NCBI GenBank assembly: GCA_963848085.1
Contig: CAWKCE010000005.1
Coordinates: forward strand, 559,667-623,666
Direction: 5' to 3'
Length of the DNA stretch: 64,000 nt
Source: an uncultured Actinomycetota bacterium
Lineage (GTDB): Bacteria > Actinomycetota > Actinomycetes > JAHEKZ01
Position numbers and translations under genes: made by a program. Within the stretch, counting starts at the first letter, position 1, and the number at the start of each line of letters is the position of its first letter. Below, one piece after another: positions 9,564-40,187 of the stretch. The notes beneath the pieces are model-generated. The model was not told the origin of the DNA. It worked only from the letters and a program-made list of their open reading frames with translations, and made no database searches.

Positions 9564-9634
9564 AGAGCCTCAAAACGACCAAGAGCCGATCCCTCGTGAA
9601 CGAGAAAATCGGCTCTGACCTGCGATGACGTGTG

Positions 9635-9707
9635 CGCGCCCGGAGAGACTCGAACTCCCAACCTTCTGATCCGTAGTCAGATGCTCTATCCGTTGAGCTA
9701 CGGGCGC
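9635..9707 (-). tRNA. tRNA-Arg (anticodon ACG)
   Basis: Cloverleaf: acceptor GCGCCCG/CGGGCGC, D-arm GCTCAACGGATAGAGC, anticodon arm TCTGA-CTACGGA-TCAGA, T-arm GGGAG-TTCGAGT-CTCTC, discriminator G, no encoded CCA. Confidence 0.85.
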
Positions 9708-10155: not shown

Positions 10156-10223
10156 ACCTCGACCCTAGGACGATCCCGGCCCCAGGGACGACGAAAGCCC
10201 CGGCGAGCCGGGGCTTTCGAGCG

Positions 10224-10314
10224 CGGAGGCGGCGGGATTTGAACCCGCGAGGGGTTTTGAGACCCCAACCCGCTTAGCAGGCGGGCGCCATCGGCCGGAC
10301 TAGGCGACGCCTCC
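10224..10314 (-). tRNA. tRNA-Ser (anticodon GCT)
   Basis: Acceptor GGAGGCG/CGCCTCC, anticodon loop CTGCTAA, long variable arm, T-arm GCGGG-TTCAAAT-CCCGC. Confidence 0.8.
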
Positions 10315-14118: not shown

Positions 14119-14145
14119 GACTTGCTAGGCAGGGCCTAGCAAGTC
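14119..14145. terminator. Bidirectional intrinsic terminator hairpin between convergent genes
   Basis: Perfect 12-bp stem GACTTGCTAGGC / GCCTAGCAAGTC with 3-nt loop AGG; overlaps the stop codon of the minus-strand methyltransferase gene. Confidence 0.5.
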
Positions 14146-15403
14146 AGCTGAGCCAGTCCGGACGCAGCGGCATCCCGCTGCGTCCGCCGGCGGCCAGCTT
14201 CACCGCCAGCACCTGGTGCAGCTGGATCCGGTTCAGGTCGAACCCGACGCGCGACGCCGCCATGTACAGCTCCCAGACCCTGGCCCTGCGCTCCCCCACC
14301 TCCGCGACGGCCTCCGGCCAGTTCTCGGTCAGGTTGGCACCCCAGTCACGCAACGTCATCGCGTAGTGCTCACGCAGGTTCTCCTCGTGCCGCGGCTCCA
14401 AACCGTTGTCCTGCAGGGCGGAGATCACCCGCCCGACCCCGAGCAGCTCGCCGTCGGGGAACACGTACCGGTCGATGAAGCCCCCGGCACGCGCCCGCTC
14501 CTTCGTGGTCGCCCGGGTGATGCAGTGGTTCAGCAGCCGCCCCTCGGGACGCAGCCGCGACGCGAGGAAGCGGAAGTAGCCGGGTAGGTTCTTGCGGCCG
14601 ACATGTTCGGTCAGCCCGATCGACGACACCGCGTCGAAGCCCAGCTGCCCGACGTCGCGGTAGTCGGAGTACCGGATCTCGACGAGGTCGGCCAGACCAC
14701 GCTCGGCAACCTTCTTCTGCGCCCAGTCGGCCTGCAGCTTCGACAACGTGACGCCAAGCACCTTGACACCGTGGTGCTCGGCCGCGTGCATGGCCATGCC
14801 ACCCCAGCCGCAGCCGACGTCCAGCAGCCGCATCCCCGGCTCCAGCGCGAGCTTGCGGCAGACCAGCTCGTACTTGTCGCGCTGCGCCTCCTCCAGCGAG
14901 GCCTCCGCCGTCGGATAGACCGCGCAGGTGTACGTCATCGACGGACCGAGGACGAGCTCGTAGAAACGGTTCGACACGTCGTAGTGGTGGGCGATCGCCG
15001 CCGCATCACGCTGCTTCGAGTGGCGAAGCCCCCGCCGCCATGGCGGTGCCGCCTCCTCCGGAGGCACCGGCGGTCGTCCGATGATCTCCGGCCCGAGGTC
15101 ACGCAGGATCGCCAGCTTCTGGGTGGCCGACACGTCCTGGCGAGACTCGCCGACCATCGCCAGCAAAGCCGCGTGAAGGTCGCCATGGACCACCAGCTCC
15201 CCGCTCACGAAAGCCCTCGCCAGACCCAGGTCTCCGGGTGCGCCAGTGATGTACTTCAGCGCGGTGGGGGAACGGACTTCGAGCGTGGCGGCGGCGTCGG
15301 TGGTCCCGAACTCGCTCCCGTCATACGCGGTCAGCCGCAGGTTGGCGCTGTTTCCCACCACGTGCTGGAATGCCTCGGCGATCGTCATCTTCCCGCTGGG
15401 CAC
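14144..15403 (-). CDS. cyclopropane-fatty-acyl-phospholipid synthase-family SAM-dependent methyltransferase (BfaB/UfaA1-like)
   Basis: 419 aa; SAM-binding motif 'LLDVGCGWGGMAMHAAEHHG', CFA-synthase family C-terminal region. Confidence 0.8.
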   Translation of the reverse strand: MPSGKMTIAEAFQHVVGNSANLRLTAYDGSEFGTTDAAATLEVRSPTALKYITGAPGDLGLARAFVSGELVVHGDLHAALLAMVGESRQDVSATQKLAILRDLGPEIIGRPPVPPEEAAPPWRRGLRHSKQRDAAAIAHHYDVSNRFYELVLGPSMTYTCAVYPTAEASLEEAQRDKYELVCRKLALEPGMRLLDVGCGWGGMAMHAAEHHGVKVLGVTLSKLQADWAQKKVAERGLADLVEIRYSDYRDVGQLGFDAVSSIGLTEHVGRKNLPGYFRFLASRLRPEGRLLNHCITRATTKERARAGGFIDRYVFPDGELLGVGRVISALQDNGLEPRHEENLREHYAMTLRDWGANLTENWPEAVAEVGERRARVWELYMAASRVGFDLNRIQLHQVLAVKLAAGGRSGMPLRPDWLS

Positions 15404-15422
15404 AGTTCCTCCTGACTTCGCA

Positions 15423-16856
15423 TCACCGGGCCCGGACGCACTTGCTGAACAGGTCCAGCAACCGGTCGTCCGGGTCGTACTCCTTCTTCAGCACGCGGTA
15501 GGAATCCCCGCCGTACGTTTGCCAGAACTCGTCCTCCTCGTAGTAGGCCGACGAGTACAGCGACTTGCGTCCGCCGAGGTCCGAGACGAGCCGCTCGATC
15601 AGTCGGTTGTGCGTCCCGTCGGCTTCGCCGGGGTCAAGGGGCACGGTGGACCAGAAACCGAAGTTCACGTAAGTAGTCGACGGGTCGAGCGCGTACAGGT
15701 CCCAGCGACGCGAACCCTCGCGCTGGCGCAGCGGGCACATCCAGACCGGGCTGATTCCGATCTCGCGCTCGAATACCTCCAGGAACTCAGCGGCGCGGTC
15801 GACCGGCACCTCGACGTCCTGGATGACCGCCTCCCGGTCGGGACGGCCGCGAGACCGGTCGTAGCGAGCCTTCCACCCGTGCCGTCGCTCGAAGCCCACC
15901 GCCCGCCAGTAGACGTCGCTGCGCTTGAGCCGCCGGGGGACGAGCGGCCGGACGAGTCGGTGCTGGACCCCTAAGGCTCGGGAGCACCAGAACCAGTCGG
16001 TGTCCCACCGCCAGATGTAGTCGTGGACGGTAAGGAAGTCACGTCGGCGATGCTGAATGGACCGGTAGTAGATCTCGTTGCCGGTGTAGTCGGAGACGTA
16101 CGGCGCGGTCGCGACGAAGCGGCCCAGCGTCAGGTACAGCTCGTCGGTGTCGAAGACCACGCCGTCGACGAAGTCGACCAGGCGACCAGCATGACGTCGA
16201 TGGGCCGCGATCTCGGCAACCGTGGCGAAGTACTCCGCGCGGTCGTGGAACCTGACGTGCTCCAGCTCCACGTACGGCAGCACCGGCTGCAGCTCGATGC
16301 GCAGCCGCAGCGCGTAACCCAGCGTCCCGTACGAGTTCGGGAAGCCGTGGAACAGGTCGGCGTGGTCGCCGTCCGGCGTGACGGTCAGCACGCGCCCGTC
16401 CCCGGTGAGCACGTCCATGTCGAGCACCGACTCGTGGGGGCAGCCGTTCACGAACGACGAGGACTCGATTCCCAGCCCAGTGACCGCTCCTCCGAGCGTG
16501 ATCGTCTTCAGCTGCGGCACGACGAGCGGCATCAGTCCGTGGGGCAGCGTGGCCGCGACCAGGTGCTCATACGTCGTCATCCCGAGAACATCCGCCGTCC
16601 CACCCGCCTGGTCGACGTCGAGCACACCGTCGAACGCCGACACGTCGAGCCCGGGACTGGCCACGGCGTCGCGCATGCGGAACAGGTTCGAGGTGCGTTT
16701 CCCTAGCCTGACCGGAGCCCCCGCATCGAGGGAGTCGTACTCCTCGAGGAGCTGGTCACGGGCGCGGGCATATGTGCCGTATGTCGGCATGACCCACAGG
16801 GTAGGACCTGGGCGACGCAGTTCGGGAGCGATCGTCAGAACCCGATTGGGCCGCAC
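15423..16856 (-). CDS. FAD-binding oxidoreductase (PCMH-type FAD-linked oxidase; BfaA-like partner of the methyltransferase)
   Basis: 477 aa; FAD-binding 4 domain motifs, immediately upstream of and co-oriented with the cfa-like gene. Confidence 0.75.
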   Translation of the reverse strand: MRPNRVLTIAPELRRPGPTLWVMPTYGTYARARDQLLEEYDSLDAGAPVRLGKRTSNLFRMRDAVASPGLDVSAFDGVLDVDQAGGTADVLGMTTYEHLVAATLPHGLMPLVVPQLKTITLGGAVTGLGIESSSFVNGCPHESVLDMDVLTGDGRVLTVTPDGDHADLFHGFPNSYGTLGYALRLRIELQPVLPYVELEHVRFHDRAEYFATVAEIAAHRRHAGRLVDFVDGVVFDTDELYLTLGRFVATAPYVSDYTGNEIYYRSIQHRRRDFLTVHDYIWRWDTDWFWCSRALGVQHRLVRPLVPRRLKRSDVYWRAVGFERRHGWKARYDRSRGRPDREAVIQDVEVPVDRAAEFLEVFEREIGISPVWMCPLRQREGSRRWDLYALDPSTTYVNFGFWSTVPLDPGEADGTHNRLIERLVSDLGGRKSLYSSAYYEEDEFWQTYGGDSYRVLKKEYDPDDRLLDLFSKCVRAR

Positions 16857-16885: not shown

Positions 16886-18418
16886 CTAGACGCGGAACCG
16901 GGAGATGGACTGGCGCAGGTCGTCGGCCAGCGCGGTGAGCGACGCAGCGGCCCGTGCCGAGTCGTCGGATCCGGCAGCGGCCTGCTGGGAGACCTCGGCC
17001 ACCTGCCCCATCGTGGTCACGATCTCGGTCGACGCCGATCGCTGCAGCTGGCTCGCGTTGGAGATCTCGCGGGCCGACGTGGTCGTCTCGTCGGCCATCT
17101 CGGAGATCCGCTCCAGAACCGCCACGACGTCCCGGGCCAGTGCGACTCCGGTGAGGACCTCCTCGGCACCTTCGGCGGTCGCCGCGGTCGTGGCCCGCAT
17201 CTCGGACTGGATCTGGGAGACGATCTGCTGGATCTGCTTGGTGGACGTCTGTGCGCGCTCCGACAGCTTGCGGACCTCGGCTGCGACCACAGCGAAGCCA
17301 CGGCCGTGCTCTCCCGCGCGGGCCGCCTCGATGGCGGCGTTGAGCGCGAGCAGGTTCGTCTGCTTCGCCAGCTCGTCGATGACCTCGAGGATGCGGCCGA
17401 TCTCACCGGACTTGTCCGCCAGTGCCGCAGTCCGCTCAGCCACGAGCTGCGAGCGATGCGCGATCGCATCGATCGCGGCGACGGCGTTGGCGACCGCCTC
17501 CTGGCCCTCCTCGGCGAACCGGAAGGTCATGGCGGCCTGGTCGACCACCTCCGAGCTGCTGGCCGCGATGACCTCCGCCATCTGCTGCAGCTGCTCAAGC
17601 GTGGCCGTCGACTCCACGACGGCGCCCGACTGCCGGCCGGATGCCGAGGCCTGGACCTGTGCCGCGTGCAGCAGCTCACCGGCGCTCTCCGAGATGCGGT
17701 CACCGCCGTCCCGGACCCGGTCGACCAGCATGCGCAGGGACACCAGGGTCTCGTCGATGTTGACGGCCAGGGAGCGCAGAGCGGTCTCCTCGCCCTCCGA
17801 GGTCGGGATCGCCACGGCCAGGTTGCCGTCGGCCGCCTCTCCGAGTGACAGCGACAGCTGTTCCACCCGCCGGGCCAGTCGATCGTGGTGCACCTGGTGG
17901 ATGCCCGACTTGAGCACTTCGTCAAAGCCGACCACCAGCGGGATGACCGTTGCCGCAGCGAACAGCCACGGCAGGACGGCCAGGCTGAACGTTCCGGACG
18001 CGAATGCGGCCACCACCAGCAGCGCGGCCGCGATCCCCGCGAACGCCACCAGGCCGGCACGTGCCACGACGTCCGCAACGAACACCGCCACCGTGACGAA
18101 CAGCACCCACACCGGTCCGCGCAGCCCGCCGGTCAAGGCCACCAGCCCGGCGACCCACACCATCTCGGCGGTGATCAGGGCCAAGGCCAGTCGACGGTCC
18201 GCGTGAACCAGCTCGCTCCGTCTCGCCTGCACCGCGAGCCAGGTGAGCAAGAGCGCGTAGCCGGCTCCGACCACGATCCAGACCAGGGCGGGGACCAGCA
18301 CCACGGGTACGGAGGGGTCCGAGACGTCGATGAGCACGGTCAGGACCAAGCCCAGACCGACGTTCACCCATGCGGCGATCGCCCCCGTGCGCGCCAGCTG
18401 CTGCGGGTCGTCCATCAC
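16886..18418 (-). CDS. methyl-accepting chemotaxis protein with polytopic membrane N-terminal sensor
   Basis: 510 aa; MCP signalling domain '[35 protein letters not shown]'; 5-6 N-terminal TM helices. Confidence 0.85.
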
Positions 18419-19656: not shown

Positions 19657-21120
19657 GTGACGCGGAGGGCAGCGGTTGCAGCCGGCAGCGCCGGGGCCGC
19701 CGGGGCCGCGGTCGACCTCCTTCGCGCCGGGGGCAACGCCTTCGACGCGGTGGTGGCCGCGGGTTTTGCTGCCGCCGTCAGCGAGCCCGGGCTGACCAGT
19801 CTGGGCGGCGGCGGCTTCCTGATGGCCCGGCCCGCCGGAGGGCAGCCACGCGTCCTCGACTTCTTCGTCGACGCACCCGGTCACGGACACTCCGGCGCTG
19901 AGCTGGAGCCACACTTCGTCGGCGTCACGGTCCAGTTCACCGGCGCCGAGCAGGTCTTCTACGTCGGCGCCGGATCGGTTGCAGTGCCCGGGTGCCTGTC
20001 GGGATACCTGGCCGCCCACCGGAGCTGGGGGTCGCGCCCGCTGGCCGAGGTGGTCGCACCGGCGCAGCGGCTGGCCCGGGACGGGGTTGCCCTCGAGCCC
20101 ACCCAGGCGACGGTCCTCGGCCTGCTGGCCGACATCCTGACGTTGAGCGACGAGGGCAGCCGGGTGTTCGCGCCGACCGGGTCGCTGCCCCACGCCGGCG
20201 ATCTGGTGCGCAACGTCGACTACGCCGACTTCCTCGACCGGGTGACGAGCGGCGAGGTCACCGGATTCGACTCCCCGGCCGTTGCCGCTGGCCTCCTCGA
20301 CCGGATCCAGGCCGGCGGGGGCCCGCTCACGCGTGCCGACCTCGCCGGCTACCGACCGGTCGAACGGACGCCGCTGACGGCCCAGTACGGGGGAAACCTG
20401 CTGGTCACCAACCCTCCGCCGTCGTTCGGGGGGTCGATCGTGGTCGAGGCCCTTGCCGACCTCGACCGGATGGGTCCCTACGCCGACGACGCGGCACGGG
20501 TGGTGGCCACCACCCGTGCGCTCGACACGGCCACGCAGGCGCAGAAGCGGCGCCGGCAGGCGTCAAGCAGCCGCGGGACGACGCACATCAGCGTGGTCGA
20601 CGCCGAGGGAAACCTGGCCGCACTGACCACGTCAAACGGCTCCTGCTCCGGGGTGTTCGCTCCGGGGACCGGGGTGCAGCTGAACAACGTGATGGGCGAG
20701 TCCGACCTCCACCCAGACGGCTTTCACGCCACCGTTCCGGGGACCCGGATCGGGTCGATGATGGCCCCCTCACTCCTGGAGCTTGCCGACGGAAGGGTCG
20801 TCGCCATGGGGAGCGGTGGCAGCGAGCGCATCCGCAGTGCGCTCACCCAGGTGGTGGTGAACCTCGTCGACCGCAGGCTGCCCCTCGCAGACGCGATCCT
20901 GGCACCGCGCGTGCACGACGACGGGCGCGCGGTCCAGGTGGAGCCGGGGCTGTCCGACCGGGCGCTGGCCGGGCTGGCCGAGCTGCGTCCGGTCAACTGC
21001 TGGTCCTCCCGCAGCCTGTACTTCGGCGGCACCCACGGCGTGGTGCTTCACCCGGACGGGCACGTCGAGGCAGCGGGCGACCCGAGGCGGGACGGCGCGG
21101 CAGTCGTCGTCGACCTGTGA
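19657..21120 (+). CDS. gamma-glutamyltransferase family protein (no signal peptide)
   Basis: GGT N-terminal 'GGNAFDAVVAAGFAAAVSEPGLTSLGGGGFLM' and catalytic Thr region 'SRGTTHISVVDAEGN'; GTG start 19657 chosen to avoid overlap with the K+ channel gene. Confidence 0.8.
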   Translation: MTRRAAVAAGSAGAAGAAVDLLRAGGNAFDAVVAAGFAAAVSEPGLTSLGGGGFLMARPAGGQPRVLDFFVDAPGHGHSGAELEPHFVGVTVQFTGAEQVFYVGAGSVAVPGCLSGYLAAHRSWGSRPLAEVVAPAQRLARDGVALEPTQATVLGLLADILTLSDEGSRVFAPTGSLPHAGDLVRNVDYADFLDRVTSGEVTGFDSPAVAAGLLDRIQAGGGPLTRADLAGYRPVERTPLTAQYGGNLLVTNPPPSFGGSIVVEALADLDRMGPYADDAARVVATTRALDTATQAQKRRRQASSSRGTTHISVVDAEGNLAALTTSNGSCSGVFAPGTGVQLNNVMGESDLHPDGFHATVPGTRIGSMMAPSLLELADGRVVAMGSGGSERIRSALTQVVVNLVDRRLPLADAILAPRVHDDGRAVQVEPGLSDRALAGLAELRPVNCWSSRSLYFGGTHGVVLHPDGHVEAAGDPRRDGAAVVVDL

Positions 21121-21157
21121 GCCCCATACCGCCCGGGGCCAGAGAAACCCCCACGGC

Positions 21158-22216
21158 GTGGGAGACTCACCCGGTCCCTTCGGAAGGATCTGGATGAACG
21201 GCAACGCCTCGTACCGCCACACCAACACGGCGGTGCTGTCGATCGTCGCCGTCGAGGCGCCCGTCGTGGTGACCTCCGCGGACATCGATGCGCGCCTGAC
21301 CGCCGCGTACCAGCGCTTCGGTGTGCGACCTGGCGTCCTCGAGGGGCTCGCGGGCATCCGCGAGCGCCGGTGGTGGTCCGAGGGCTCCTCCTTCATCGAC
21401 GGCGCGGTGACGGCCGGTGGCAAGGCCCTCGCGCAGTCCGGGATCGACGCCAGCCAGGTGGGGCTGATGATCAACTCGTCGGTCAACCGCACCTACCTGG
21501 AGCCGTCCACCGCGGTCGCCATGCACCACCGCCTGGACCTGCCCACGTCTGCGGTGAACTTCGACCTTTCGAACGCCTGCCTGGGCTTCGTCAACGGGAT
21601 CCACCTCGCCGCGACCATGATCGACGCCGGGCAGCTGGACTATGCGCTGATCCTGGACAGCGAGGACGCCCGGGCCACCCAGGAAGCCACGCTCACCCGC
21701 CTGGCCGACCCCGAGGCGACAATCCAGGACTTCTTCAACGAGTTCGCGACGCTGACGCTGGGCTCGGGCGCGGCCGCAATGGTGCTGGGTCCGGCCGACC
21801 GGCACCCCGAGGGGCACCGCGTCGTCGCCGGCATCACCCGCGCCGGGACCGAGCACCACGACCTGTGCGTGGGCGACATGAACGGGATGCGCACCGACAC
21901 GCAGGGGCTGCTGGACGCCGGCCTGCAGCTGGCGGAGGACGCCTGGAAGGAGGCCCTGGTCGACCACGAGTGGCAGGCCGCCGACCGGTACATCCTTCAC
22001 CAGGTCTCCAGCGTCCACACGAACGCGCTGTGCGAGCGTCTCGGGCTGGACCAGACCAAGGTGCCGCTCACCTTCCCGACGTTCGGCAACATCGGCCCCG
22101 CCGCACTGCCGTTCACGCTGGCCCAGGAGGTCGACAAGCTCGCCACCGGGGACCAGGTGCTGTGCCTGGGGATCGGGTCGGGCCTGAACACCGCCTTCCT
22201 CGAGCTCGCCTGGTGA
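21158..22216 (+). CDS. oleA: OleA-like thiolase (FabH-family condensing enzyme)
   Basis: 352 aa KAS-III fold; first gene of the oleA-oleBC-oleD arrangement. Confidence 0.75.
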   Translation: MGDSPGPFGRIWMNGNASYRHTNTAVLSIVAVEAPVVVTSADIDARLTAAYQRFGVRPGVLEGLAGIRERRWWSEGSSFIDGAVTAGGKALAQSGIDASQVGLMINSSVNRTYLEPSTAVAMHHRLDLPTSAVNFDLSNACLGFVNGIHLAATMIDAGQLDYALILDSEDARATQEATLTRLADPEATIQDFFNEFATLTLGSGAAAMVLGPADRHPEGHRVVAGITRAGTEHHDLCVGDMNGMRTDTQGLLDAGLQLAEDAWKEALVDHEWQAADRYILHQVSSVHTNALCERLGLDQTKVPLTFPTFGNIGPAALPFTLAQEVDKLATGDQVLCLGIGSGLNTAFLELAW

Positions 22217-24837
22217 ACCCGTCCGCCGCCGCCTCGCTGCCCCCAGCTGGGCTGCCGGGGCTGGACCCGTCGTGGTCCAGGCTCGTGCGCGCGCCCGACC
22301 CGGAGGGGGTGGTGCGCGCCTGGCACGTCCTGGACGCCGGACCCCGGGACGGCGGCACGCCCAGGGGAACCCTGCTCTGCGTCCACGGGAACCCGACCTG
22401 GTCATACACGTGGCGGTCGGTCGTCGCGGCCGGCAGCGCCGCCGGCTGGCGGGTGGTGGCGGTCGACCACCTCGGCATGGGGTTCTCCGAGCGCACCGGA
22501 GGGCAGCACCGCCTGGCCGACCGGGTGGCCGAGCTCGCCTCGCTGACCGACGCCCTCCAGCTGTCCGGGCCAGTGGTGACGGTGGCCCACGACTGGGGCG
22601 GGGTGATCAGCCTGGGGTGGGCGCTGGACCACCGCGCTCTGCTCGCCGGTGTCGTCCTGGCCAACACGGCCGTCAGCCAGCCGCCCGACGCTCGCGTCCC
22701 CGCACTCATCGCGCTCGCGCGTACGCGGGCACTGGTGCACTCGGCCACCGTCACGACGCCGGCGTTCCTCACCGGCACGCTGCGGCTGGCACATCCCGCC
22801 CTCGAGTCAGGGGTGCGCGCCGGTTACCTGGCCCCCTACCGGACTGCGGCGAGGCGGTCGGCGATCGGCGACTTCGTCGCCGACATCCCCGTGGCACCCG
22901 ACCACCCGAGCCGAGCCGCCCTCGACACGATCGGCGCGCGCCTGGGCGAGCTGGCCGAGGTTCCCGCGCTGTTCGTCTGGGGGCCGCGCGACCCCGTGTT
23001 CTCCGACCGCTACCTCCGCGACCTGCAGCAACGCCTCCCCCAGGCCCGGACGCATCGCTTCGAGGGCGCCGGTCACCTCGTGGTCGAGGACGCGCCGGTC
23101 GCCGAAACGGTCGTCGGCTTCGTCACGGACCTGGGCACCGCCCCGGTCGCGGCGCCGGCTCTCACTGTCACAGACAGCCAGGCGCCGACGCCTCACCGGG
23201 AACCCAGCGGTCCGCCCCGGGAGGCGGCCGAGCGTCGGCCCCTCGGCCAGGCGCTCGCGTCCCGAGCTTCCGACCCGGGCGCCGCCCTCGTCGAGCTCGG
23301 TCCGGACGGCCCCCGCCGCACCGTCAGCTGGGCCCAGCTGTCCCGCGTCGTCGACGAGCTCGCGGCAGGGTTGGTCGAGCTCGGGGTGCGTCCCGGTGAC
23401 CGGCTCGCCCTGCTGGTCCCCCCGGGAGCCGACCTCACCGCCGCCGTGTACGCCTGCTGGCGGGCCCGCGCCGTCGTGGTGCTGGCCGACGCCGGCCTCG
23501 GTCTCTCCGGGCTCCGGCGCGCGCTGCGGGGCGCCGGCGTCGCCGGCGTCATCGGCACCGGGAAGGGCCTGCTGGCCGCCCGCAGCATGGGCCTGCCCGG
23601 CCGCCAGGTCCTGGCCGGGTCCGGCGGCTCGGCGGTGCGGCGGTCTCTGGGCGCCCACCACACGCTTGCCGACGTCGCGCGGCTGGGCCACGGTATCCCC
23701 GCACCGCCGGCCCCAGCCCCGGCGGACGAGGCAGCTGTCCTGTTCACGTCCGGCGCGACCGGGCCGGCCAAGGGAGTGGTCTACCGCCACGCACAGCTGG
23801 AGGCGCAGCGCGACGTCCTGTCCGAGGGGCTCGGGCTGGTGGGTTCCGACCGGTTCGTCGCCGCCTTCGCGCCGTTCGCGCTGTACGGGCCCGCCCTGGG
23901 CGTGACGACCGCCGTCCCCGACATGGACGTCACCTCCCCCGGCACGCTGACCGCCCGTGCGCTGGCCGACGCAGTCGCCGCGGTCGACGCGTCGGTGGTC
24001 TTCGGCGCCCCCGCAGCACTCCGGAACGTCGTGGCCACTGCGGATGACCTGGATCCAGAGCAGCGTGCCTCGCTCGCATCGGTCCGGATGCTGCTGTCCT
24101 CGGGCGCTCCTGTCCCACCGGAGACGCTCCGGCTTGCCGCTGACCTGATGGGCGGCTGCGAGGCACACACGCCCTACGGCATGACCGAAGCCCTGCCGAT
24201 CGCCGACATCGAGCTGGACGACCTGGAGCGGGTCGGCGCCGGTACCGGTGTCTGCGTCGGCATGCCCTTCCCCGGAGTGCGGGTCGCGGTCAGCGGCCTG
24301 GCGCCCGACGGCCACGCCGAAGGGGCGCTGACCGAGGACCCCGACGTCACCGGCGAGATCTGCGTACGGGCACCCCACGTCAAGGACAGCTACGACCAGC
24401 TGTGGTCCACCGAGCGAGCGAGCTCGCGGGACGCCGGCTGGCACCGCACCGGTGACGTCGGTCACCTCGACCGCCAGGGCCGGCTGTGGGTCGAGGGTCG
24501 GCTGGGGCACGTCGTCGTGACCGCCGACGGCCCGGTCACTCCTGTCGGGCCGGAGCGCCGGGTGGAGCAGCTGGACGCAGTTCGACTGGCGGCGCTCGTC
24601 GGTGTGGGACCTCGCGGCACCCAGGCGCTGGTCATGGTCGTGGAGTCCCCGGGAACGCCACCGGGACCGGCGGACCTGGACCTCACCGCGGCCGTGCGCG
24701 ACCAGGCCGGGCTGCCGATCGCGGCCGTGCTCGTCGTGCCGGACCTGCCGGTGGACATTCGACACAACTCCAAGATCAACCGCACGGCGGTCGCCACTCA
24801 TGCCGAGCAGGTGCTGTCGGGGAAGCGGTCGGCATGA
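22213..24837 (+). CDS. oleBC: OleB-OleC fusion: alpha/beta-hydrolase domain fused to AMP-dependent synthetase/ligase
   Basis: GTGA overlap with oleA stop; N-domain 'LLCVHGNPTWSYTWR...HDWGG' (alpha/beta hydrolase), C-domain AMP-binding 'LFTSGATGPAKGVVYRHAQL'. Confidence 0.8.
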   Translation: MNPSAAASLPPAGLPGLDPSWSRLVRAPDPEGVVRAWHVLDAGPRDGGTPRGTLLCVHGNPTWSYTWRSVVAAGSAAGWRVVAVDHLGMGFSERTGGQHRLADRVAELASLTDALQLSGPVVTVAHDWGGVISLGWALDHRALLAGVVLANTAVSQPPDARVPALIALARTRALVHSATVTTPAFLTGTLRLAHPALESGVRAGYLAPYRTAARRSAIGDFVADIPVAPDHPSRAALDTIGARLGELAEVPALFVWGPRDPVFSDRYLRDLQQRLPQARTHRFEGAGHLVVEDAPVAETVVGFVTDLGTAPVAAPALTVTDSQAPTPHREPSGPPREAAERRPLGQALASRASDPGAALVELGPDGPRRTVSWAQLSRVVDELAAGLVELGVRPGDRLALLVPPGADLTAAVYACWRARAVVVLADAGLGLSGLRRALRGAGVAGVIGTGKGLLAARSMGLPGRQVLAGSGGSAVRRSLGAHHTLADVARLGHGIPAPPAPAPADEAAVLFTSGATGPAKGVVYRHAQLEAQRDVLSEGLGLVGSDRFVAAFAPFALYGPALGVTTAVPDMDVTSPGTLTARALADAVAAVDASVVFGAPAALRNVVATADDLDPEQRASLASVRMLLSSGAPVPPETLRLAADLMGGCEAHTPYGMTEALPIADIELDDLERVGAGTGVCVGMPFPGVRVAVSGLAPDGHAEGALTEDPDVTGEICVRAPHVKDSYDQLWSTERASSRDAGWHRTGDVGHLDRQGRLWVEGRLGHVVVTADGPVTPVGPERRVEQLDAVRLAALVGVGPRGTQALVMVVESPGTPPGPADLDLTAAVRDQAGLPIAAVLVVPDLPVDIRHNSKINRTAVATHAEQVLSGKRSA

Positions 24838-25808
24838 AGGTCCTCGTCACCGGAGCCAGCGGCATGCTGGGGGCCGCCACGGCGCGAGCGCTCGTCACTG
24901 CCGGCCACACCGTCACCGTCCTCCAGCGCCGGGCATCCGGGCTCGACGTCGCCGAGGTACGAGGCGACATCACCGACGACGGCGTCGTCCGCTGGGCGTG
25001 CACAGGGCAGGACGCCGTCGTCCATCTGGCCGCCCGCGTCACGCTGACCGGGTCGTGGGAGGACTTCGAGCGGGTCAACGTCGGTGGCACGCGGACCGTC
25101 CTGGCCGCCGCCCGCGCAGCGGGCGCCACCCGGTTCATCCACGTGTCCTCGCCGTCGGTGGCGCACTCCGGATCCGCCCTGGTGGGAGTCGCCGCCGGTC
25201 CAGCTGACCCCGACGCCGCTCGGGGTCACTACGCCCGGAGCAAGGCGGTGGCCGAGCGCATGGCGCTCGCCGCGGGAGCAGGCGACTTCGCGGTCGTCGC
25301 TGTTCGTCCCCATCTGGTGTGGGGGCCCGGCGACACCCAGCTCGTCGGACGCGTCGTCGAGCGGGCACGAACCGGCCGGCTGATGCTCGTGGGCGGAGGT
25401 GGCGCCCTCATCGACTCCACCTACGTCGACAACGCAGCCGACGCCCTCGTCGCCTCACTGCACCGGATCGAGGACCTCCGCGGCCAGTCGCTTGTGGTCA
25501 CCAACGGGGAGCCGCGCACCGTCCGCGAGCTGCTGACGGCGATCTGCCGGGCAGCAGCCGTGCCCGAACCGACCCGTTCGGTGCCCCTGGCGGTAGCCGC
25601 TGGCGGGGGGACCGTCGTGGAGCGAGCGTGGGACCTGTTCGGGCGCGAGGACGAGCCGCCCATGACCCGTTTCCTCGCCGAGCAGCTGGCCACCGCCCAC
25701 TGGTTCGACCAGCGGAACACCCGCGAGGCGCTGCAGTGGGCACCCCGGGTCGGGCTCGACGAGGGCTTCGCCCGACTGGCGTCCTGGTTCGCGCGAACCA
25801 CCCACTGA
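24834..25808 (+). CDS. oleD: OleD-like NAD(P)-dependent epimerase/dehydratase-family reductase
   Basis: ATGA overlap with oleBC stop; Rossmann 'MKVLVTGASGMLGAATARAL'. Confidence 0.75.
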   Translation: MKVLVTGASGMLGAATARALVTAGHTVTVLQRRASGLDVAEVRGDITDDGVVRWACTGQDAVVHLAARVTLTGSWEDFERVNVGGTRTVLAAARAAGATRFIHVSSPSVAHSGSALVGVAAGPADPDAARGHYARSKAVAERMALAAGAGDFAVVAVRPHLVWGPGDTQLVGRVVERARTGRLMLVGGGGALIDSTYVDNAADALVASLHRIEDLRGQSLVVTNGEPRTVRELLTAICRAAAVPEPTRSVPLAVAAGGGTVVERAWDLFGREDEPPMTRFLAEQLATAHWFDQRNTREALQWAPRVGLDEGFARLASWFARTTH

Positions 25809-25914
25809 GCCGGCGGCATCGCGGCGCGGCACCGCTACCTGATCGGCGCAACGGATCACACTCGGAACCGTCCGACGTTCCGACCACGCAAGGTCTCGGC
25901 AAGAGAGGGCGCCC

Positions 25915-27582
25915 ATGAACCGGTCGATCCGCGTGCTGTCCGTCGTTGGCCTGGCAGCGGCGGGTCTGGCGGCTACCCCGCTGACGGCGTCTGCCGCGGC
26001 CGACGCCACGTGCACCTACGCCGCCGGTAAGAAGCTGGTGACGCTGAAGCTGCCGAGCACCGACGCCGAGGAAGGCCCCTACACCATCGGTCGGGTCCCG
26101 GGCTCCAAGCGGATCGGGTACGACTCCGACCTCGTCACGTGGAAGCGCTGCGGCGCCGCGACCGTGACGAACACGAACAAGATCAAGATCGTGGGGACCG
26201 ACCAGAGCGAGGCGCTGGTCATCAGTCTCGAGGGCGGCGCGCTTGCGCCAGGAGCATCCGGCGAGAAGACCGGGGTCTCCGAGATCGAGATCGTCGGCGA
26301 CCTCGGCAACGGGACGGACACGCTGACCCTGCGCGGAGGCAACGGCGGCGACCGGCTCACCTTGCACTCGAAGTCCTCCGCCTCGCTCAACTCCGACACG
26401 GACGCCGACGTCGCCCTCGAGGGGCTGGACGTGTGGATCCTTGACGGCGGGCTCGGTGCCGACGTGCTGGACGGACACGGCGTCCCCAAGGTCGAGGCAT
26501 ACGGGAAAGAGGGTCCCGACCGTGTGATCGGCAGCAAGGGGCGCGACCGCCTGTACGGCGACGGCGGAGCGACTGCCGGCGACGGCAACGACGTCATCAG
26601 CGGCGGGGCCGGCGATGACAGCCTCTACGGCGGCGGCGGCCGCGACCGACTCGAGGGCGGCCCGGACGACGACTACCTTCTCGGTGAGGGAGGCAACGAC
26701 AACCTCAGCGGCGGCGCCGGCGGGGACGCGTTCTATGCCGACCCGGGCGCCGACGGCAACGACGTGATCAGCGGTGGCTCCGGCGAGGACCGGGTCAGCT
26801 ACTCCGACCGCTCCACACCCCTACGCCTCACGCTGGACGGCAAGGCCAACGACGGTGCCAAGGGTGAGAAGGACCTGATCCGGGGCGACGTCGAGGACCT
26901 GTACGGGGGAAACAAGGCCGACGTGCTGATCGGCAACGGAGCCGACAACTACCTACGGGGCAACGACGGTGGGGATGTGCTCAAGGGCATGGGCGGCGGC
27001 GACAGCTTCAGCCCCGACAACGGGAACGACTCGGTCTTCGGCGGCAGCGGCGACGACAACTTGTCGAACAGCCCGGGCCAGGACCGCATGTTCGGTGAGG
27101 CAGGCGACGACTACCTGTACGCCGGTGACGGCAACGACGGTCGCGACGTCTTCTCCGGCGGCCCGGGTGTGGACTCACTCACCTTCTACCAGCGCACCAA
27201 CAGCGTCACGATCGACGTCACCACCGACGGCGGCGATGGCGAGGCCGGCGAGAACGACTTCGTGAAGGCCGACTTCGAGTACCTGACCGGGGGCGCCGGC
27301 AGCGACCTGATCAAGGGCGCCGGCGGCGCCGAGGTGCTGTCCGGGCAGGCCGGCGACGACACGCTGAACGGCGGCCGCGGCCCCGACAAGCTGTACGGGG
27401 GCACCGGTGCCGACACGTTGGTCGGAGGCGAGGGCTACGACGACCTGTACGGGGACGCGGACAACGACTACCTGCAGATGGCGGACGGGGGCAAGGACTA
27501 CGGCGACTGCGGAATCGGCACGGACACCGCATCCATCGACGCCTTCGACACCTACTACAACTGCGAGTCACTCGTCGCCTGA
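25915..27582 (+). CDS. secreted calcium-binding protein with RTX-type GGxGxDxUx repeats
   Basis: Signal peptide 'MNRSIRVLSVVGLAAAGLAATPLTASAAA'; more than 15 nonapeptide repeats, e.g. 'GGAGDDSLYGGGGRDRLEGGPDDDYLLGEGGNDNLSGGAGGDAFY'. Confidence 0.7.
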   Translation: MNRSIRVLSVVGLAAAGLAATPLTASAAADATCTYAAGKKLVTLKLPSTDAEEGPYTIGRVPGSKRIGYDSDLVTWKRCGAATVTNTNKIKIVGTDQSEALVISLEGGALAPGASGEKTGVSEIEIVGDLGNGTDTLTLRGGNGGDRLTLHSKSSASLNSDTDADVALEGLDVWILDGGLGADVLDGHGVPKVEAYGKEGPDRVIGSKGRDRLYGDGGATAGDGNDVISGGAGDDSLYGGGGRDRLEGGPDDDYLLGEGGNDNLSGGAGGDAFYADPGADGNDVISGGSGEDRVSYSDRSTPLRLTLDGKANDGAKGEKDLIRGDVEDLYGGNKADVLIGNGADNYLRGNDGGDVLKGMGGGDSFSPDNGNDSVFGGSGDDNLSNSPGQDRMFGEAGDDYLYAGDGNDGRDVFSGGPGVDSLTFYQRTNSVTIDVTTDGGDGEAGENDFVKADFEYLTGGAGSDLIKGAGGAEVLSGQAGDDTLNGGRGPDKLYGGTGADTLVGGEGYDDLYGDADNDYLQMADGGKDYGDCGIGTDTASIDAFDTYYNCESLVA

Positions 27583-27585
27583 CGG

Positions 27586-27670
27586 CGGAGGGTGAGGGAT
27601 TTGAACCCCCGGACGCTTGCGCGTCTCCCGCTTTCAAGGCGGGTGCATTCGGCCGCTCTGCCAACCCTCC
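27586..27670 (-). tRNA. tRNA-Ser (anticodon TGA)
   Basis: Acceptor GGAGGGT/ACCCTCC, anticodon loop CTTGAAA, long variable arm, T-loop TTCAAAT. Confidence 0.8.
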
Positions 27671-28224: not shown

Positions 28225-29007
28225 TCACTCGACCGGTGAGGGCGCCCAGCGGGGGAGCCGCTTCTCGCCGAACGCCCGCATACCCTCGGCCCCCTCCGCC
28301 GATGCGAACCGCGCGGCCGACAGCTGGGCGGTCCACTCGAACGCTTCCTCGCGCGACAGGTGCGGCACCTGCTGCAGTACCTGCTTGGTGGCCGCGACTG
28401 CCTCCGGTCCGCCCAGGAGCAGGTCGGCTACGTACGACTGGACGGTGTCATCCAGCTCCGCCGGCGGAACTACCTGCTGCACCAGGCCGACGGCACGTGC
28501 CGTTGCGGCATCGATGCGCCGCCCCGTGAGGAGCAGCGCGGACGCGTCGGCCGGCGACAGGCGGCGGAGCAGCGGGATCGCGATGACCGCAGGGGCCACG
28601 CCCACGCGTACCTCGGTGAAGCCGAAACGCGCGACGTCGCTGGCCACCGCGATGTCGCAGGCGGCCACCAGACCGTTTCCTCCGCCCGCGACGTGTCCCT
28701 GGACACGGGCCACGACGGGCTTGGGGTGGTCCATCACAGCGGTGAGAACCCGGACGAGGGCCGCCGCCCCCGTGCCGGCGAACGAACCCGCGTCACCGGC
28801 GGCTGACCCGCGCAGGTCGGCGCCGGCGCAGAACACCGTGCCCGTCGCCGTCAGGACGACCACGCGGACGTCGTCCGCGATGGCCCGCGCCAGCTGGTCC
28901 GACAGGCAGTCGAGCATGTCGGCGTCAAGCACGTTCCGGCGCTCCGGCCGGTCGAGGGTCAGCCGAGCCACCCCGCCGTCGAGCGACCAGGTCACCGGGT
29001 CGGTCAT
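28225..29007 (-). CDS. enoyl-CoA hydratase/isomerase (crotonase family)
   Basis: 'VVVLTATGTVFCAGADLRG' oxyanion-hole motif; start at 'MTDPVTW' (ATGA overlap with upstream atuA-like stop). Confidence 0.8.
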   Translation of the reverse strand: MTDPVTWSLDGGVARLTLDRPERRNVLDADMLDCLSDQLARAIADDVRVVVLTATGTVFCAGADLRGSAAGDAGSFAGTGAAALVRVLTAVMDHPKPVVARVQGHVAGGGNGLVAACDIAVASDVARFGFTEVRVGVAPAVIAIPLLRRLSPADASALLLTGRRIDAATARAVGLVQQVVPPAELDDTVQSYVADLLLGGPEAVAATKQVLQQVPHLSREEAFEWTAQLSAARFASAEGAEGMRAFGEKRLPRWAPSPVE

Positions 29008-30824
29008 TCCGCCCCCTCCCTGGCCAGCAGCACTGACGGCAGGTCGACATGCCGTGACCGGAGGTACTCCCCGAGCCCCTTGCCCTGCGGGTCGAGCGCG
29101 GTGTTCTCCGCGACCCCGCGACCGAGCATCCCGCGGACGACCAGGTTCACCGCGCGCAGGTTCGGGAAGGAGTACCGGTCTACCCGCAGCCCGTGAACCT
29201 CCGGCATGAGGCCGGGCAGCGTCCGCGGGGTGACCGCACGCAGCAGCCACTGGAACGCCTCGTCCGGGTCACCCAGCTCCGGCCGCACCCAGAGTCCGAT
29301 GTTGGCGTTGCCCCCCTTGTCGCCCGACCGAGCGCCCACGACCCTGCCCAGGGGGCCGCGGACCGTGGCCCCCCAGTCGCCCCCTACCGGCTCCGGCTCG
29401 GGATCCGGGACCGAGGCGACGAACGGCTGTCGGCCTGTGCTCCAGGCGACGTCAAGCACTTGGTCACCTTCGGGCTCAGCCATGGTGAACCGGTGGGCCA
29501 CCTCGTGGTGGGCAACCGTGGTCGGCCAGTACACGCCGAACGACGTGGGCTCTGGGGGCGGTCCGGGCAGGAAGAGTCCCGGCACCGAGGACAGCGTCAG
29601 CTCCACACCGCGGGCGGTGAATGCGCGACCGACGACGTTGGGGTCACGGCTCTTCACCGTGACCCGGAGCTCCGCCTGCGCGTGCCAGAGATCTACCGGG
29701 TCGCCGTCCGGTTCCTGGTCGCCGTGTGGGAGCAGGGCGACGTCCACGTCGTCGAACACGTCGCGGCCACCCGGGACCGCGGCGAACAGCTGGCGCTCGA
29801 CCAGGGCGGCCTTGGCCGGCAGGTCCGAACCGGTCAGGACGAAGCTGATAGTCGTCCGGAAGCCCCCCGGGTAGTTGAGGGCCACCTTCACCCGGTCCGG
29901 CGGCGCCTCGCCCCGCGCGCCGGACACGTGAACCCGATGAGGACCGTCCGGCGCCAACCGCAGCGTGTCGAACCGCGTCACGACGTCGGGGCCCGCGTAC
30001 AGCGGTCCCTCCACCTCGTAGAGCAGCTGCGCGGTGACCGTCCCGACGTCGACGAGTCCGCCGGTCCCCCGGTGCTTGGTGATCACGGCGCTTCCGTCTG
30101 CGGCGATCTCGGCGATGGGGAAGCCCACGTGTTCCAGGCCGGGGACGTCTTCATGGAAGGCGTAGTTGCCTCCGGTCACCTGGGTGCCGCACTCGATGAG
30201 GTGCCCGGCCACCGTCGCGCCGGCAAGCTCGTGCAGGTCGTCCGGTCCCCAGCCGAACCGCCACGCAGCCGGGCCGACGACCACCGACGCATCGGTCACC
30301 CGACCGGTGACGACGATGTCGGCGCCGGCGTCGAGCGCAGCCTTGATCCCGAACGCACCCAGGTACGCGTTGGCCGTCAGCGGCCGGACCCCAAGCTCGG
30401 CGAGCTCCTCACCGGTGTCGAGGTTGACCAGCCGCTCGCCGTTGTCCTGCAGCGCATCGAGCCGAGGCATCAGGTCGTCTCCGTCGACGAAGGCCACGCG
30501 AGGCCGCAGGCTACGACGCAGCGCCAGGTCGTTGATCGCCTGCGCCAGGCCACGGGGGTCGAGGCCGCCGGCGTTGGAGACGATCCGGATACCGCGGGCC
30601 AGACACGGGGCCAGGACCTCCTCCAGCTGGTCCAGGAAGGTGCCGGCGTACCCGGTGCCGGGGCCCCGCTTCAGCCGGCGCCGGGCCAGGACGTACATGG
30701 TGAGCTCGGCGAGCCAGTCCCCGGTGAGAACGTCGAGCGGCCCGCCGTTCACCATCTCGGCCGCAGCGCTCAGCCGGTCCCCGTAGAAGCCACTGGCGTT
30801 GCCGATCCGCACCACTTCGGCCAT
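29004..30824 (-). CDS. AtuA-like (acyclic terpene utilisation, DUF1446) family protein
   Basis: About 606 aa from 'MAEVVRIGNASGFYGDRL', the characteristic N-terminus of AtuA-family proteins; co-transcribed with the crotonase. Confidence 0.6.
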   Translation of the reverse strand: MAEVVRIGNASGFYGDRLSAAAEMVNGGPLDVLTGDWLAELTMYVLARRRLKRGPGTGYAGTFLDQLEEVLAPCLARGIRIVSNAGGLDPRGLAQAINDLALRRSLRPRVAFVDGDDLMPRLDALQDNGERLVNLDTGEELAELGVRPLTANAYLGAFGIKAALDAGADIVVTGRVTDASVVVGPAAWRFGWGPDDLHELAGATVAGHLIECGTQVTGGNYAFHEDVPGLEHVGFPIAEIAADGSAVITKHRGTGGLVDVGTVTAQLLYEVEGPLYAGPDVVTRFDTLRLAPDGPHRVHVSGARGEAPPDRVKVALNYPGGFRTTISFVLTGSDLPAKAALVERQLFAAVPGGRDVFDDVDVALLPHGDQEPDGDPVDLWHAQAELRVTVKSRDPNVVGRAFTARGVELTLSSVPGLFLPGPPPEPTSFGVYWPTTVAHHEVAHRFTMAEPEGDQVLDVAWSTGRQPFVASVPDPEPEPVGGDWGATVRGPLGRVVGARSGDKGGNANIGLWVRPELGDPDEAFQWLLRAVTPRTLPGLMPEVHGLRVDRYSFPNLRAVNLVVRGMLGRGVAENTALDPQGKGLGEYLRSRHVDLPSVLLAREGAE

Positions 30825-30887
30825 GCGACCTCCTCGTGGCGGCGGCTTCGGGTACTGCCCCACAGCGAACCTATCTACGCTGGCCGG

Positions 30888-31874
30888 ATGCGCGCGATCG
30901 TGGTCGACCACCCTGGCCCGCCCGACGTTCTGCGGTGGGGGGAGGCGCCCGACCCCGTCGCCGCCGCCGGCGAGGTACTGGTCGCCGTGGCGGCGGCGGG
31001 AGTGAACCGCGCCGACCTGCTCCAACGCGAGGGTCACTACCCACCGCCGGCCGGCGCCTCGCCGACTCTCGGTCTGGAGTGCTCCGGGCGCGTCGTCGCC
31101 GTCGGACCGGCAGTGTCTGGCTGGGCCATCGGTGACGAGGTGTGCGCCCTCCTGACCGGGGGCGGGTACGCCGAGCTGGCGGCGGTGCCCCAGGGCCAGC
31201 TGATGCCCGTGCCGCAGACCATCGACCTGGTGTCCGCCGCGGCCCTCCCCGAGGCAGCCGCGACGGTCTGGTCGAACCTGTTCATGGTGGCCGGCCTGCG
31301 CCCCGGGGAGCGCCTCCTGGTCCACGGTGGCGGATCGGGCATCGGGACCATGGCTGTGCAGCTGGCCAAGGCCGTGGGGGCACAGGTGTTCGCCACCGTC
31401 GGCTCAGCCGCCAAGGCGGACGCCGTACGGGGGCTTGGTGCCGAGGCGACCATCAACTACCGGGACGAGGACTTTGTGGAGCGAGTCCGCGACCTGACCG
31501 GCGGCGCCGGTGTGGACGTCGTCCTCGACGTGATCGGCGCGAAGTACCTTCAGCGGAACCTCGCGGCACTGGCCACCGGCGGACGTATCGTCGTGATCGG
31601 ACTGCAGGGGGGTACTCGCGCCGAGCTCGATCTCGGGCGGCTGCTCGGCAAGCGAGCGGCCATCGTCGGGACAACGTTGCGGTCCCGGCCGGAGGCGGAG
31701 AAGGCCGAGATCGTCCGGCAGGTCGTCGAACATGTCTGGCCGTTGCTGGAGCAGGGTGTGGTCCGACCGGTCGTCGACCGCGTGGTGGCGATCCAAGACG
31801 CCGCGGACGCGCACCGCGCGATGGCGGCTGGCGAGAACGTGGGCAAGATCGTGCTTGCGGTAGACAGGCCGTAG
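30888..31874 (+). CDS. NAD(P)H:quinone oxidoreductase (MDR/zinc-binding dehydrogenase family, Qor-like)
   Basis: 328 aa 'MRAIVVDHPGPPDVLRW...GVNRADLLQREGHYPPP...VHGGGSGIGTMAVQLAK'. Confidence 0.85.
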   Translation: MRAIVVDHPGPPDVLRWGEAPDPVAAAGEVLVAVAAAGVNRADLLQREGHYPPPAGASPTLGLECSGRVVAVGPAVSGWAIGDEVCALLTGGGYAELAAVPQGQLMPVPQTIDLVSAAALPEAAATVWSNLFMVAGLRPGERLLVHGGGSGIGTMAVQLAKAVGAQVFATVGSAAKADAVRGLGAEATINYRDEDFVERVRDLTGGAGVDVVLDVIGAKYLQRNLAALATGGRIVVIGLQGGTRAELDLGRLLGKRAAIVGTTLRSRPEAEKAEIVRQVVEHVWPLLEQGVVRPVVDRVVAIQDAADAHRAMAAGENVGKIVLAVDRP

Positions 31875-40049: not shown

Positions 40050-40187
40050 GTGAACTCCCTCCGCGGTCGCCCGGACGCCGCCCGTCGGGCCTACCTCGGA
40101 ACGGAACCTAGCGAGTAACTGACCCGAAGATCAGTCCCCTAGCGCAATCCTTCACCGAATCGGGACCTAACAGACAAGATTGCCTCC

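Follow-up and report, generated by a model that had tools for sequence, protein, structure and literature searches.

Background

Head-to-head olefin biosynthesis by the Ole proteins is a known bacterial pathway, whose chemistry and whose genetic organisation as an oleA/oleBC/oleD operon have both been described (PMC7158056, PMC7064751). Within Micrococcales, the alkenes produced average C27–C29 (PMC7158056, PMC7064751), and those of Kocuria range from C21 to C27 (PMC7158056). The condensing enzyme OleA carries a glutamate base followed by a proline (Glu117 in Xanthomonas campestris) that is unique to it among thiolases and that acts together with a Cys143/His285/Asn315 site (PMC8180931, PMC7064751), and a search pattern, EPxx[AS]x(14,18)DxxNACL, has been published for this enzyme (PMC7158056).

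We present here the analysis of a 64-kb stretch of DNA (hereafter the window; GC content ~ 70%; contig CAWKCE010000005.1) from an uncultured member of the Actinomycetes, for which a previous reading made from the sequence only had proposed an olefin biosynthesis cluster with fused oleB and oleC. At positions 21194–25808 of its plus strand, the window very probably carries an oleA-oleBC-oleD operon of actinobacterial type that is complete, appears functional and is predicted to encode the four Ole activities. We describe below the genes, their relatives and their surroundings, and weigh the other functions that could be proposed for them.

Results

Layout of the ole genes

The locus is made of three co-directional and overlapping genes (Table 1), whose overlaps had been announced as GTGA and ATGA and were both confirmed by direct reading of the junctions. 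At 22213–22216 (ctgGTGAacc) the GTG start of oleBC overlaps the stop of oleA, and at 24834–24837 (ggcATGAagg) the ATG of oleD overlaps the stop of oleBC, which suggests translational coupling along the operon. The sequence-only reading had given the cluster a span of 21158–25808; the three plus-strand genes are indeed there, and only the start of oleA had been placed 36 nt too far upstream. The mechanical open reading frame (ORF) of oleA extends from a GTG at 21158 to 22216 (352 codons), but the ATG at 21194 is the most likely start, because it is preceded by GGAAGGA, because the gene call on the identical public contig is 340 aa long, and because the alignments with homologues begin at the first residue of this 340-aa form. 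The oleBC start at 22213 holds, since the alignments with homologues begin at residue 18 and the frame offers no other start codon upstream of that point. All three genes distribute GC over the codon positions as real genes of the host genome do, with a GC content at third codon positions (GC3) of 0.87–0.94; the antisense ORFs that overlap them are devoid of this pattern.

OleA is distinct from FabH

The first gene product had been read as a FabH-like thiolase with the function of OleA, and both profile scores and identities bear this out. Its Pfam domains are those of a generic KAS-III enzyme (ACP_syn_III and ACP_syn_III_C; Pfam E-values ranged from 1e-9 to 1e-49 across the three Ole proteins). 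The NCBIfam model NF006720 was matched with 439.6 bits for a cut-off of 285, versus at most 102 bits for the FabH models, whose cut-offs are at least 249. Although NF006720 bears the generic name ‘3-oxoacyl-ACP synthase III’, it is in effect an OleA family, since 3FK5, the crystallised OleA homologue of Xanthomonas oryzae, matches it too (467.6 bits). Compared with solved structures, the protein scored 268–276 bits for the twelve OleA sequences from Xanthomonas in the PDB and no more than 63 bits for every other thiolase, including 46 bits for the structures of Escherichia coli FabH, and its identity reached 42% with 3FK5 and 23% with E. coli FabH. By these scores and identities, the predicted protein falls among verified OleA proteins and apart from FabH.

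The active site is in line with this assignment. The predicted catalytic residues E103-P104 (within YLEPSTA), C129, H269 and N299 correspond to E117, C143, H285 and N315 of X. campestris OleA, and the published search pattern matches aa 103–130 with a spacer of x16. At the column of the OleA glutamate, E. coli FabH has a phenylalanine, and it is also devoid of a ~ 15-residue insertion common to both OleAs compared. Residue conservation was evaluated for the three proteins on alignments of 72–75 homologues sharing 47–67% identity; in the 72 homologues of OleA, the Glu-Pro pair and the Cys, His and Asn residues are invariant.

An OleB-OleC fusion with both catalytic sets

The second gene had been interpreted as an 874-aa fusion of OleB with OleC, and we recovered both Pfam domains, Abhydrolase_1 at aa 53–295 (95 bits) and AMP-binding at aa 361–727 (166.5 bits), together with the catalytic residues of each half. 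Of the outcomes that had been named beforehand as contradicting the cluster, neither an OleA-like protein falling with ordinary FabH nor a fusion deprived of catalytic residues emerged from the scores, the identities or the residue alignments. The identical 874-aa protein is present in public databases (P0001), where it is named only ‘alpha/beta fold hydrolase’. Between the Pfam boundaries of the two domains lies a Pro/Ala-rich linker, whose sequence begins VTDLGTAPVAAPALTVTDSQAPTPHREPSGPPREAAERRP.

For the OleB domain, the best solved structure by sequence is DhmeA (8CKP/8OOH, 99 bits), with a catalytic pentad formed by N63/D129/W130/D258/H286 (PMC10503415). The residues N60/D127/W128/D260/H288 of the OleB domain align with this pentad residue for residue, and they are invariant in 73–74 of the 74 homologues. 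Once isolated, the domain found its best NCBIfam matches in haloalkane dehalogenase models, at 114 bits and below the cut-off of 265; its fusion to OleC provides a supporting context for its identity.

The OleC domain contains the motifs TSGATGPAKG (512–521), YGMTE (655–659) and TGD (746–748) as well as K854, all of them conserved in 70–74 of 74 homologues. Its NCBIfam scores were highest with PRK09274 (335 bits), followed by the olefin beta-lactone synthetase models OlefBLtnSynXan (276 bits) and OlefBLtnSynShew (229 bits), and did not exceed 150 bits with generic long-chain acyl-CoA ligases.

OleD and its cofactor

The third protein, proposed as the NAD(P)-dependent reductase OleD, falls under Epimerase/3Beta_HSD in Pfam and finds in oxyalk_red_OleD its best NCBIfam model (315.3 bits, residues 1–318 of the protein on positions 1–327 of the 329 of the model), which upholds the proposal. 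The second OleD model, oxyalk_red_Shew, gave 243 bits, and the best model outside OleD, HpnA, 118 bits. The protein displays the GASGMLG motif (7–13) and the Ser-Tyr-Lys set of the extended short-chain dehydrogenases/reductases (SDR), namely S105 and Y133-x3-K137. All of these positions are invariant among the 75 homologues, with the exception of the middle glycine of GxxGxxG, replaced by a serine in 9 of them. An Arg-Arg pair located after the second beta-strand weakly suggests a preference for NADPH. The OleD of Stenotrophomonas is an NADPH enzyme. OleD has also been described as NADH-dependent (PMC7158056), and the present protein may use either cofactor.

Relatives and synteny of the ole trio

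Relatives of the fusion are numerous: of the 8000 candidates that were scored, 5285 reached E ≤ 1e-20. The top 120 fusion homologues are mostly 850–909 aa long and all possess both domains; some of them have been named ‘cis-3-alkyl-4-acyloxetan-2-one decarboxylase / olefin beta-lactone synthetase’ by the Joint Genome Institute (JGI). A scan of species-representative genomes yielded 148 encoding stretches, of which 80 loci were compared. All three ole genes were found in 72 of these 80 loci, the remaining 8 being truncated where their contig stops, and the oleA-oleBC-oleD order and strand were retained in 71 of the 72 untruncated loci. The sole exception is a Candidatus Aldehydirespiratoraceae metagenome-assembled genome (MAG), where oleA is inverted and divergent from oleBC-oleD; the OleA of this locus is also the most divergent among the related loci (45% identity). 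Since the catalytic residues are invariant or nearly so among homologues sharing 47–67% identity, the activity of these proteins appears to be under purifying selection.

The related loci span Intrasporangiaceae, Cellulomonadaceae, Microbacteriaceae, Micromonospora, Propionibacteriales, Jiangellales, Nanopelagicales, Acidothermaceae and Acidimicrobiia, and the nearest named relatives of the ole genes (~ 58–67% identity) belong to Intrasporangiaceae, Jiangellales and Motilibacter. The occurrence of the fused layout in Acidimicrobiia, Micromonospora, Propionibacteriales, Jiangellales, Acidothermaceae and Nanopelagicales is wider than the ‘typically Micrococcales’ distribution of the literature (PMC7064751).

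Several of these loci deserve a separate mention. Five Candidatus Nanopelagicales MAGs (L027, L057, L070, L071 and L074) encode a complete oleA-oleBC-oleD cluster, and a sixth (L028) is cut before oleD; the Nanopelagicales are freshwater actinobacteria whose genomes are small. In a gammaproteobacterial MAG assigned to Congregibacter sp. (L020), oleB and oleC are fused (51% identity) and are arranged with oleA and oleD as in actinobacteria, which fits a horizontal transfer; transfers of ole genes have reportedly been suggested for Pseudohaliea and Granulosicoccus as well. Finally, a MAG contig labelled ‘Bifidobacterium breve’ (L041) bears a complete ole cluster at 54–62% identity; it may have been binned wrongly, in which case the cluster would not truly belong to Bifidobacterium.

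Proposed pathway

Based on the characterised homologues of Xanthomonas, Shewanella and Micrococcus, the reactions catalysed by the present enzymes can be proposed as follows. OleA would join two long-chain acyl-CoAs head to head, through a non-decarboxylative Claisen condensation, into a 2-alkyl-3-oxo acid, with Cys129 as the acyl acceptor and Glu103 of the partner subunit as the base. OleD would then use NAD(P)H to reduce this oxo acid to a 3-hydroxy acid, the carboxylate of which would be adenylated with ATP by the OleC domain before closure of a cis-beta-lactone. The OleB domain would decarboxylate the lactone by means of a haloalkane-dehalogenase-like Asp127/His288/Asp260 set, leaving a cis internal alkene in the membrane. 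In this scheme, the fusion of OleB with OleC would tether the last two steps of the pathway. The production of alkenes and their chain length are likewise extrapolated from these homologues; the length cannot be read from the sequence here, because it is set by the specificity of OleA and by the acyl-CoA supply (PMC7158056).

Weighing the alternatives

The least probable alternative would see in these genes unrelated lipid functions that happen to be adjacent, namely a FabH primer synthase, a fusion of an acyl-CoA ligase with an esterase, and a sugar epimerase. It draws on the generic character of the public name of the fusion, of the name of NF006720 and of all the Pfam domains, and yet it is hardly credible: the first protein reaches 275 bits with crystallised OleA versus 46 bits with E. 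coli FabH and combines the Glu-Pro pair found in OleA only with the OleA-specific insertion, the models specific to OleC and OleD surpass those of generic ligases and epimerases by more than 120 bits, and synteny of the trio holds in 71 of the 72 complete related loci, whose flanks vary. Together, the OleA scores, the Ole-specific models and the synteny effectively refute this generic reading. A pathway arrested at a beta-lactone, a 3-hydroxy acid or a ketone, as in the oleACD-type clusters of lipstatin and nocardiolactone, would make use of homologues of OleA, OleC and OleD that are common to the olefin and beta-lactone pathways (PMC7064751). The lack of oleB is nevertheless what defines such clusters (PMC7064751), whereas OleB is here fused in frame with an intact and invariant pentad, and no cytochrome P450, glycosyltransferase or non-ribosomal peptide synthetase (NRPS) gene for tailoring flanks the cluster. 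We therefore rejected a beta-lactone natural product as the end point of the pathway, and regard it as highly improbable.

The proposal of a functional olefin operon has to face several points that weigh against it. The locus belongs to the MAG of an uncultured actinomycete, and olefins are no more than traces in some actinobacteria whose ole clusters are intact (PMC7158056). The OleC domain remains below the equivalog cut-offs of OlefBLtnSynXan (276 for 900 bits) and OlefBLtnSynShew (229 for 850 bits), two models named for proteobacterial types, and OleD reaches 315 bits for an oxyalk_red_OleD cut-off of 580. No OleB-specific model appeared among the NCBIfam matches of the isolated OleB domain, and the sequence search of the PDB returned no solved OleB, OleC or OleD, the best matches being DhmeA, generic acyl-CoA ligases and a sterol dehydrogenase. 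Going by the names Xan and Shew, the OleC and OleD models with cut-offs were built on proteobacterial types, and we read the scores below these cut-offs as those of narrow, lineage-specific models (Xanthomonas, Shewanella) and not as evidence against orthology. The last of these points concerns expression: a scan of 20900–26100 detected no promoter-like site, within a search restricted to the sigma-70 consensus, which is a poor fit to high-GC actinobacteria. Together with the 73 bp that separate the stop of ggt from the start of oleA, this lack of a promoter-like signal would favour an intact cluster of minor physiological weight, delivering olefins in traces or under certain conditions rather than as a major route of membrane-lipid tailoring. 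Such a limited role is the least implausible of the alternatives, although we consider it unlikely, as the strict conservation of the catalytic residues and the maintenance of the operon in very many lineages point to a selected function. A complete and functional oleA-oleBC-oleD operon thus remains by far the most probable reading of the locus.

Neighbouring genes and signals

The other features of the window are listed with the ole genes in Table 1. The genes that flank the trio (CorA, a methyltransferase resembling cyclopropane fatty acid (CFA) synthase, a flavin adenine dinucleotide (FAD)-dependent oxidoreductase, a methyl-accepting chemotaxis protein (MCP), a TrkA-type channel, GGT, an RTX-repeat protein, an enoyl-CoA hydratase and AtuA) were not found beside ole in the 80 related loci, with the exception of one MAG contig (L010), which alone shares the MCP (66% identity), GGT (56%) and the enoyl-CoA hydratase (54%). 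Because flanks vary in this way among related loci, the ole trio appears to be a self-contained module; a larger conserved lipid locus was considered and rejected, the neighbours being shared by L010 only and the bfaAB-like pair by none of the 80 loci.

Table 1. Coordinates of the ole genes, their domains and the other features of the window
Feature	Positions	Strand	Remarks
oleA	21194–22216	+	340 aa; predicted head-to-head (non-decarboxylative Claisen) condensing thiolase
oleBC fusion	22213–24837	+	GTG start, TGA stop; 874 aa
OleB domain	22321–23124	+	aa 37–304; predicted beta-lactone decarboxylase, haloalkane-dehalogenase subfamily III type
Interdomain linker	23128–23292	+	~ aa 306–360; Pro/Ala-rich (~ 55 aa)
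OleC domain	23293–24834	+	aa 361–874; predicted ATP-dependent beta-lactone synthetase, ANL adenylating superfamily
oleD	24834–25808	+	ATG start, TGA stop; 324 aa; predicted 2-alkyl-3-oxoalkanoate reductase (extended SDR)
tRNA-Arg(ACG)	9634–9707		upstream
tRNA-Ser(GCT)	10223–10314		upstream
CMAS/CFA-synthase-family methyltransferase	14144–15403	-	bfaB-like; downstream of the oxidoreductase
FAD-binding oxidoreductase (FAD_binding_4)	15423–16856	-	bfaA-like
Methyl-accepting chemotaxis protein	16886–18418	-	upstream flank
RTX-repeat protein	25915–27582	+	555 aa; HemolysinCabind 118 bits; signal-peptide-like N-terminus
tRNA-Ser(TGA)	27584–27670	-	directly after the RTX-repeat gene
Enoyl-CoA hydratase and AtuA-family protein	28225–31325	-	acyclic terpene utilisation (AtuA; 510 bits); downstream of ole
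Degradative thiolase	40143–41375	+	~ 15 kb further on

The sequence-only reading had pointed to a 10-methyl fatty acid cassette 5 kb away as a second route of membrane-lipid tailoring. A plausible bfaA-bfaB pair is indeed encoded at 14144–16856, in the order (oxidoreductase, then methyltransferase) described for the synthesis of 10-methyl fatty acids (PMC7791843), neither gene reaching an NCBIfam cut-off. Its link with ole is positional only: the pair lies 4.3 kb from oleA, with three unrelated genes on mixed strands in between, and it was found near ole in none of the 80 related loci, so that its proximity to the operon appears incidental. We consider it very unlikely that OleA accepts 10-methyl-branched acyl-CoAs and thereby gives rise to long-chain alkenes with a mid-chain methyl branch, a class that, to our knowledge, has not been reported from the Ole pathway. 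This link finds no support in the sequences, the ole and bfaAB-like loci are not co-conserved, and the Bfa enzymes act on phospholipid-bound chains and not on the acyl-CoA pool (PMC7791843).

Among the other neighbours, the MCP gene hints at motility in the source actinomycete. Directly downstream of oleD, a gene encodes a protein with RTX calcium-binding nonapeptide repeats, which is not next to ole in the related loci; RTX-repeat proteins are not usually expected in actinobacteria. The enoyl-CoA hydratase, the AtuA-family protein and the degradative thiolase have no evident link to ole.

Few signals were detected in the DNA around the operon. The terminator scan of 20900–26100 returned one terminator-like hairpin, at 21148–21164, in minus-strand orientation and at chance frequency. 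The spacer between ggt and oleA folds no better than shuffled sequences (z = -1.2), the Rfam scan of the window returned tRNAs only, and no sign of an integrated element was found around the ole cluster.

Discussion

Our results allow the re-annotation of this locus as oleA/oleBC/oleD, since the public names of the fusion and of the OleA model are generic, and they add one more uncultured lineage to the many actinobacteria that possess the Ole pathway. The OleA variant found here could serve the engineering of olefin chain length. Beyond a correct annotation, the importance of the locus is limited and it opens no new question.

Comparison with known systems places the locus close to one described type and at various distances from the others. 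The clusters of lipstatin (LstABCD) and nocardiolactone have in common with it OleA-, OleC- and OleD-like enzymes and the chemistry that leads up to the beta-lactone (PMC7064751); they differ by the absence of oleB and often by paired OleA homologues and tailoring enzymes, whereas the window holds an intact OleB and is free of tailoring genes. Among solved structures, DhmeA of Haloferax mediterranei, a protein of the haloalkane-dehalogenase-like subfamily III, comes nearest to the OleB domain, and its N/D/W/D/H pentad is exactly aligned. It is nonetheless a stand-alone, multimeric protein with no link to olefin synthesis and serves here as a structural reference only.

The oleABCD systems of X. 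campestris and X. oryzae are nearer. The present OleA shares 42% identity with 3FK5, has identical catalytic residues and belongs to the same NCBIfam model, the OleC and OleD models of Xanthomonas type are the best or nearly the best for the present domains, with scores below their narrow equivalog cut-offs, and the OleB of Xanthomonas belongs to the same haloalkane-dehalogenase group (HLD-III) as the present OleB domain (PMC10503415). The main difference lies in the gene structure, with oleB and oleC as separate genes in Xanthomonas and fused here through the Pro/Ala-rich linker.

The closest resemblance is with the Micrococcales. According to the published descriptions, Micrococcus luteus NCTC 2665 (oleA Mlut_13230) has the same order of oleA, oleBC and oleD, the same fusion, the same order of domains and the same polarity, and the clusters of Kocuria, Kytococcus, Arthrobacter and Mobilicoccus share this three-gene fused layout (PMC7158056, PMC7064751); the present locus differs from that of M. 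luteus by its origin in the MAG of an uncultured actinomycete. The likening of the locus to the layout of M. luteus and of its relatives with C27–C29 alkenes, already put forward from the letters, agrees with this literature (PMC7158056, PMC7064751). The system, its fused layout and its distribution among actinobacteria being already established (PMC7158056, PMC7064751), we regard the locus as a real but ordinary representative of the actinobacterial type of ole operon.

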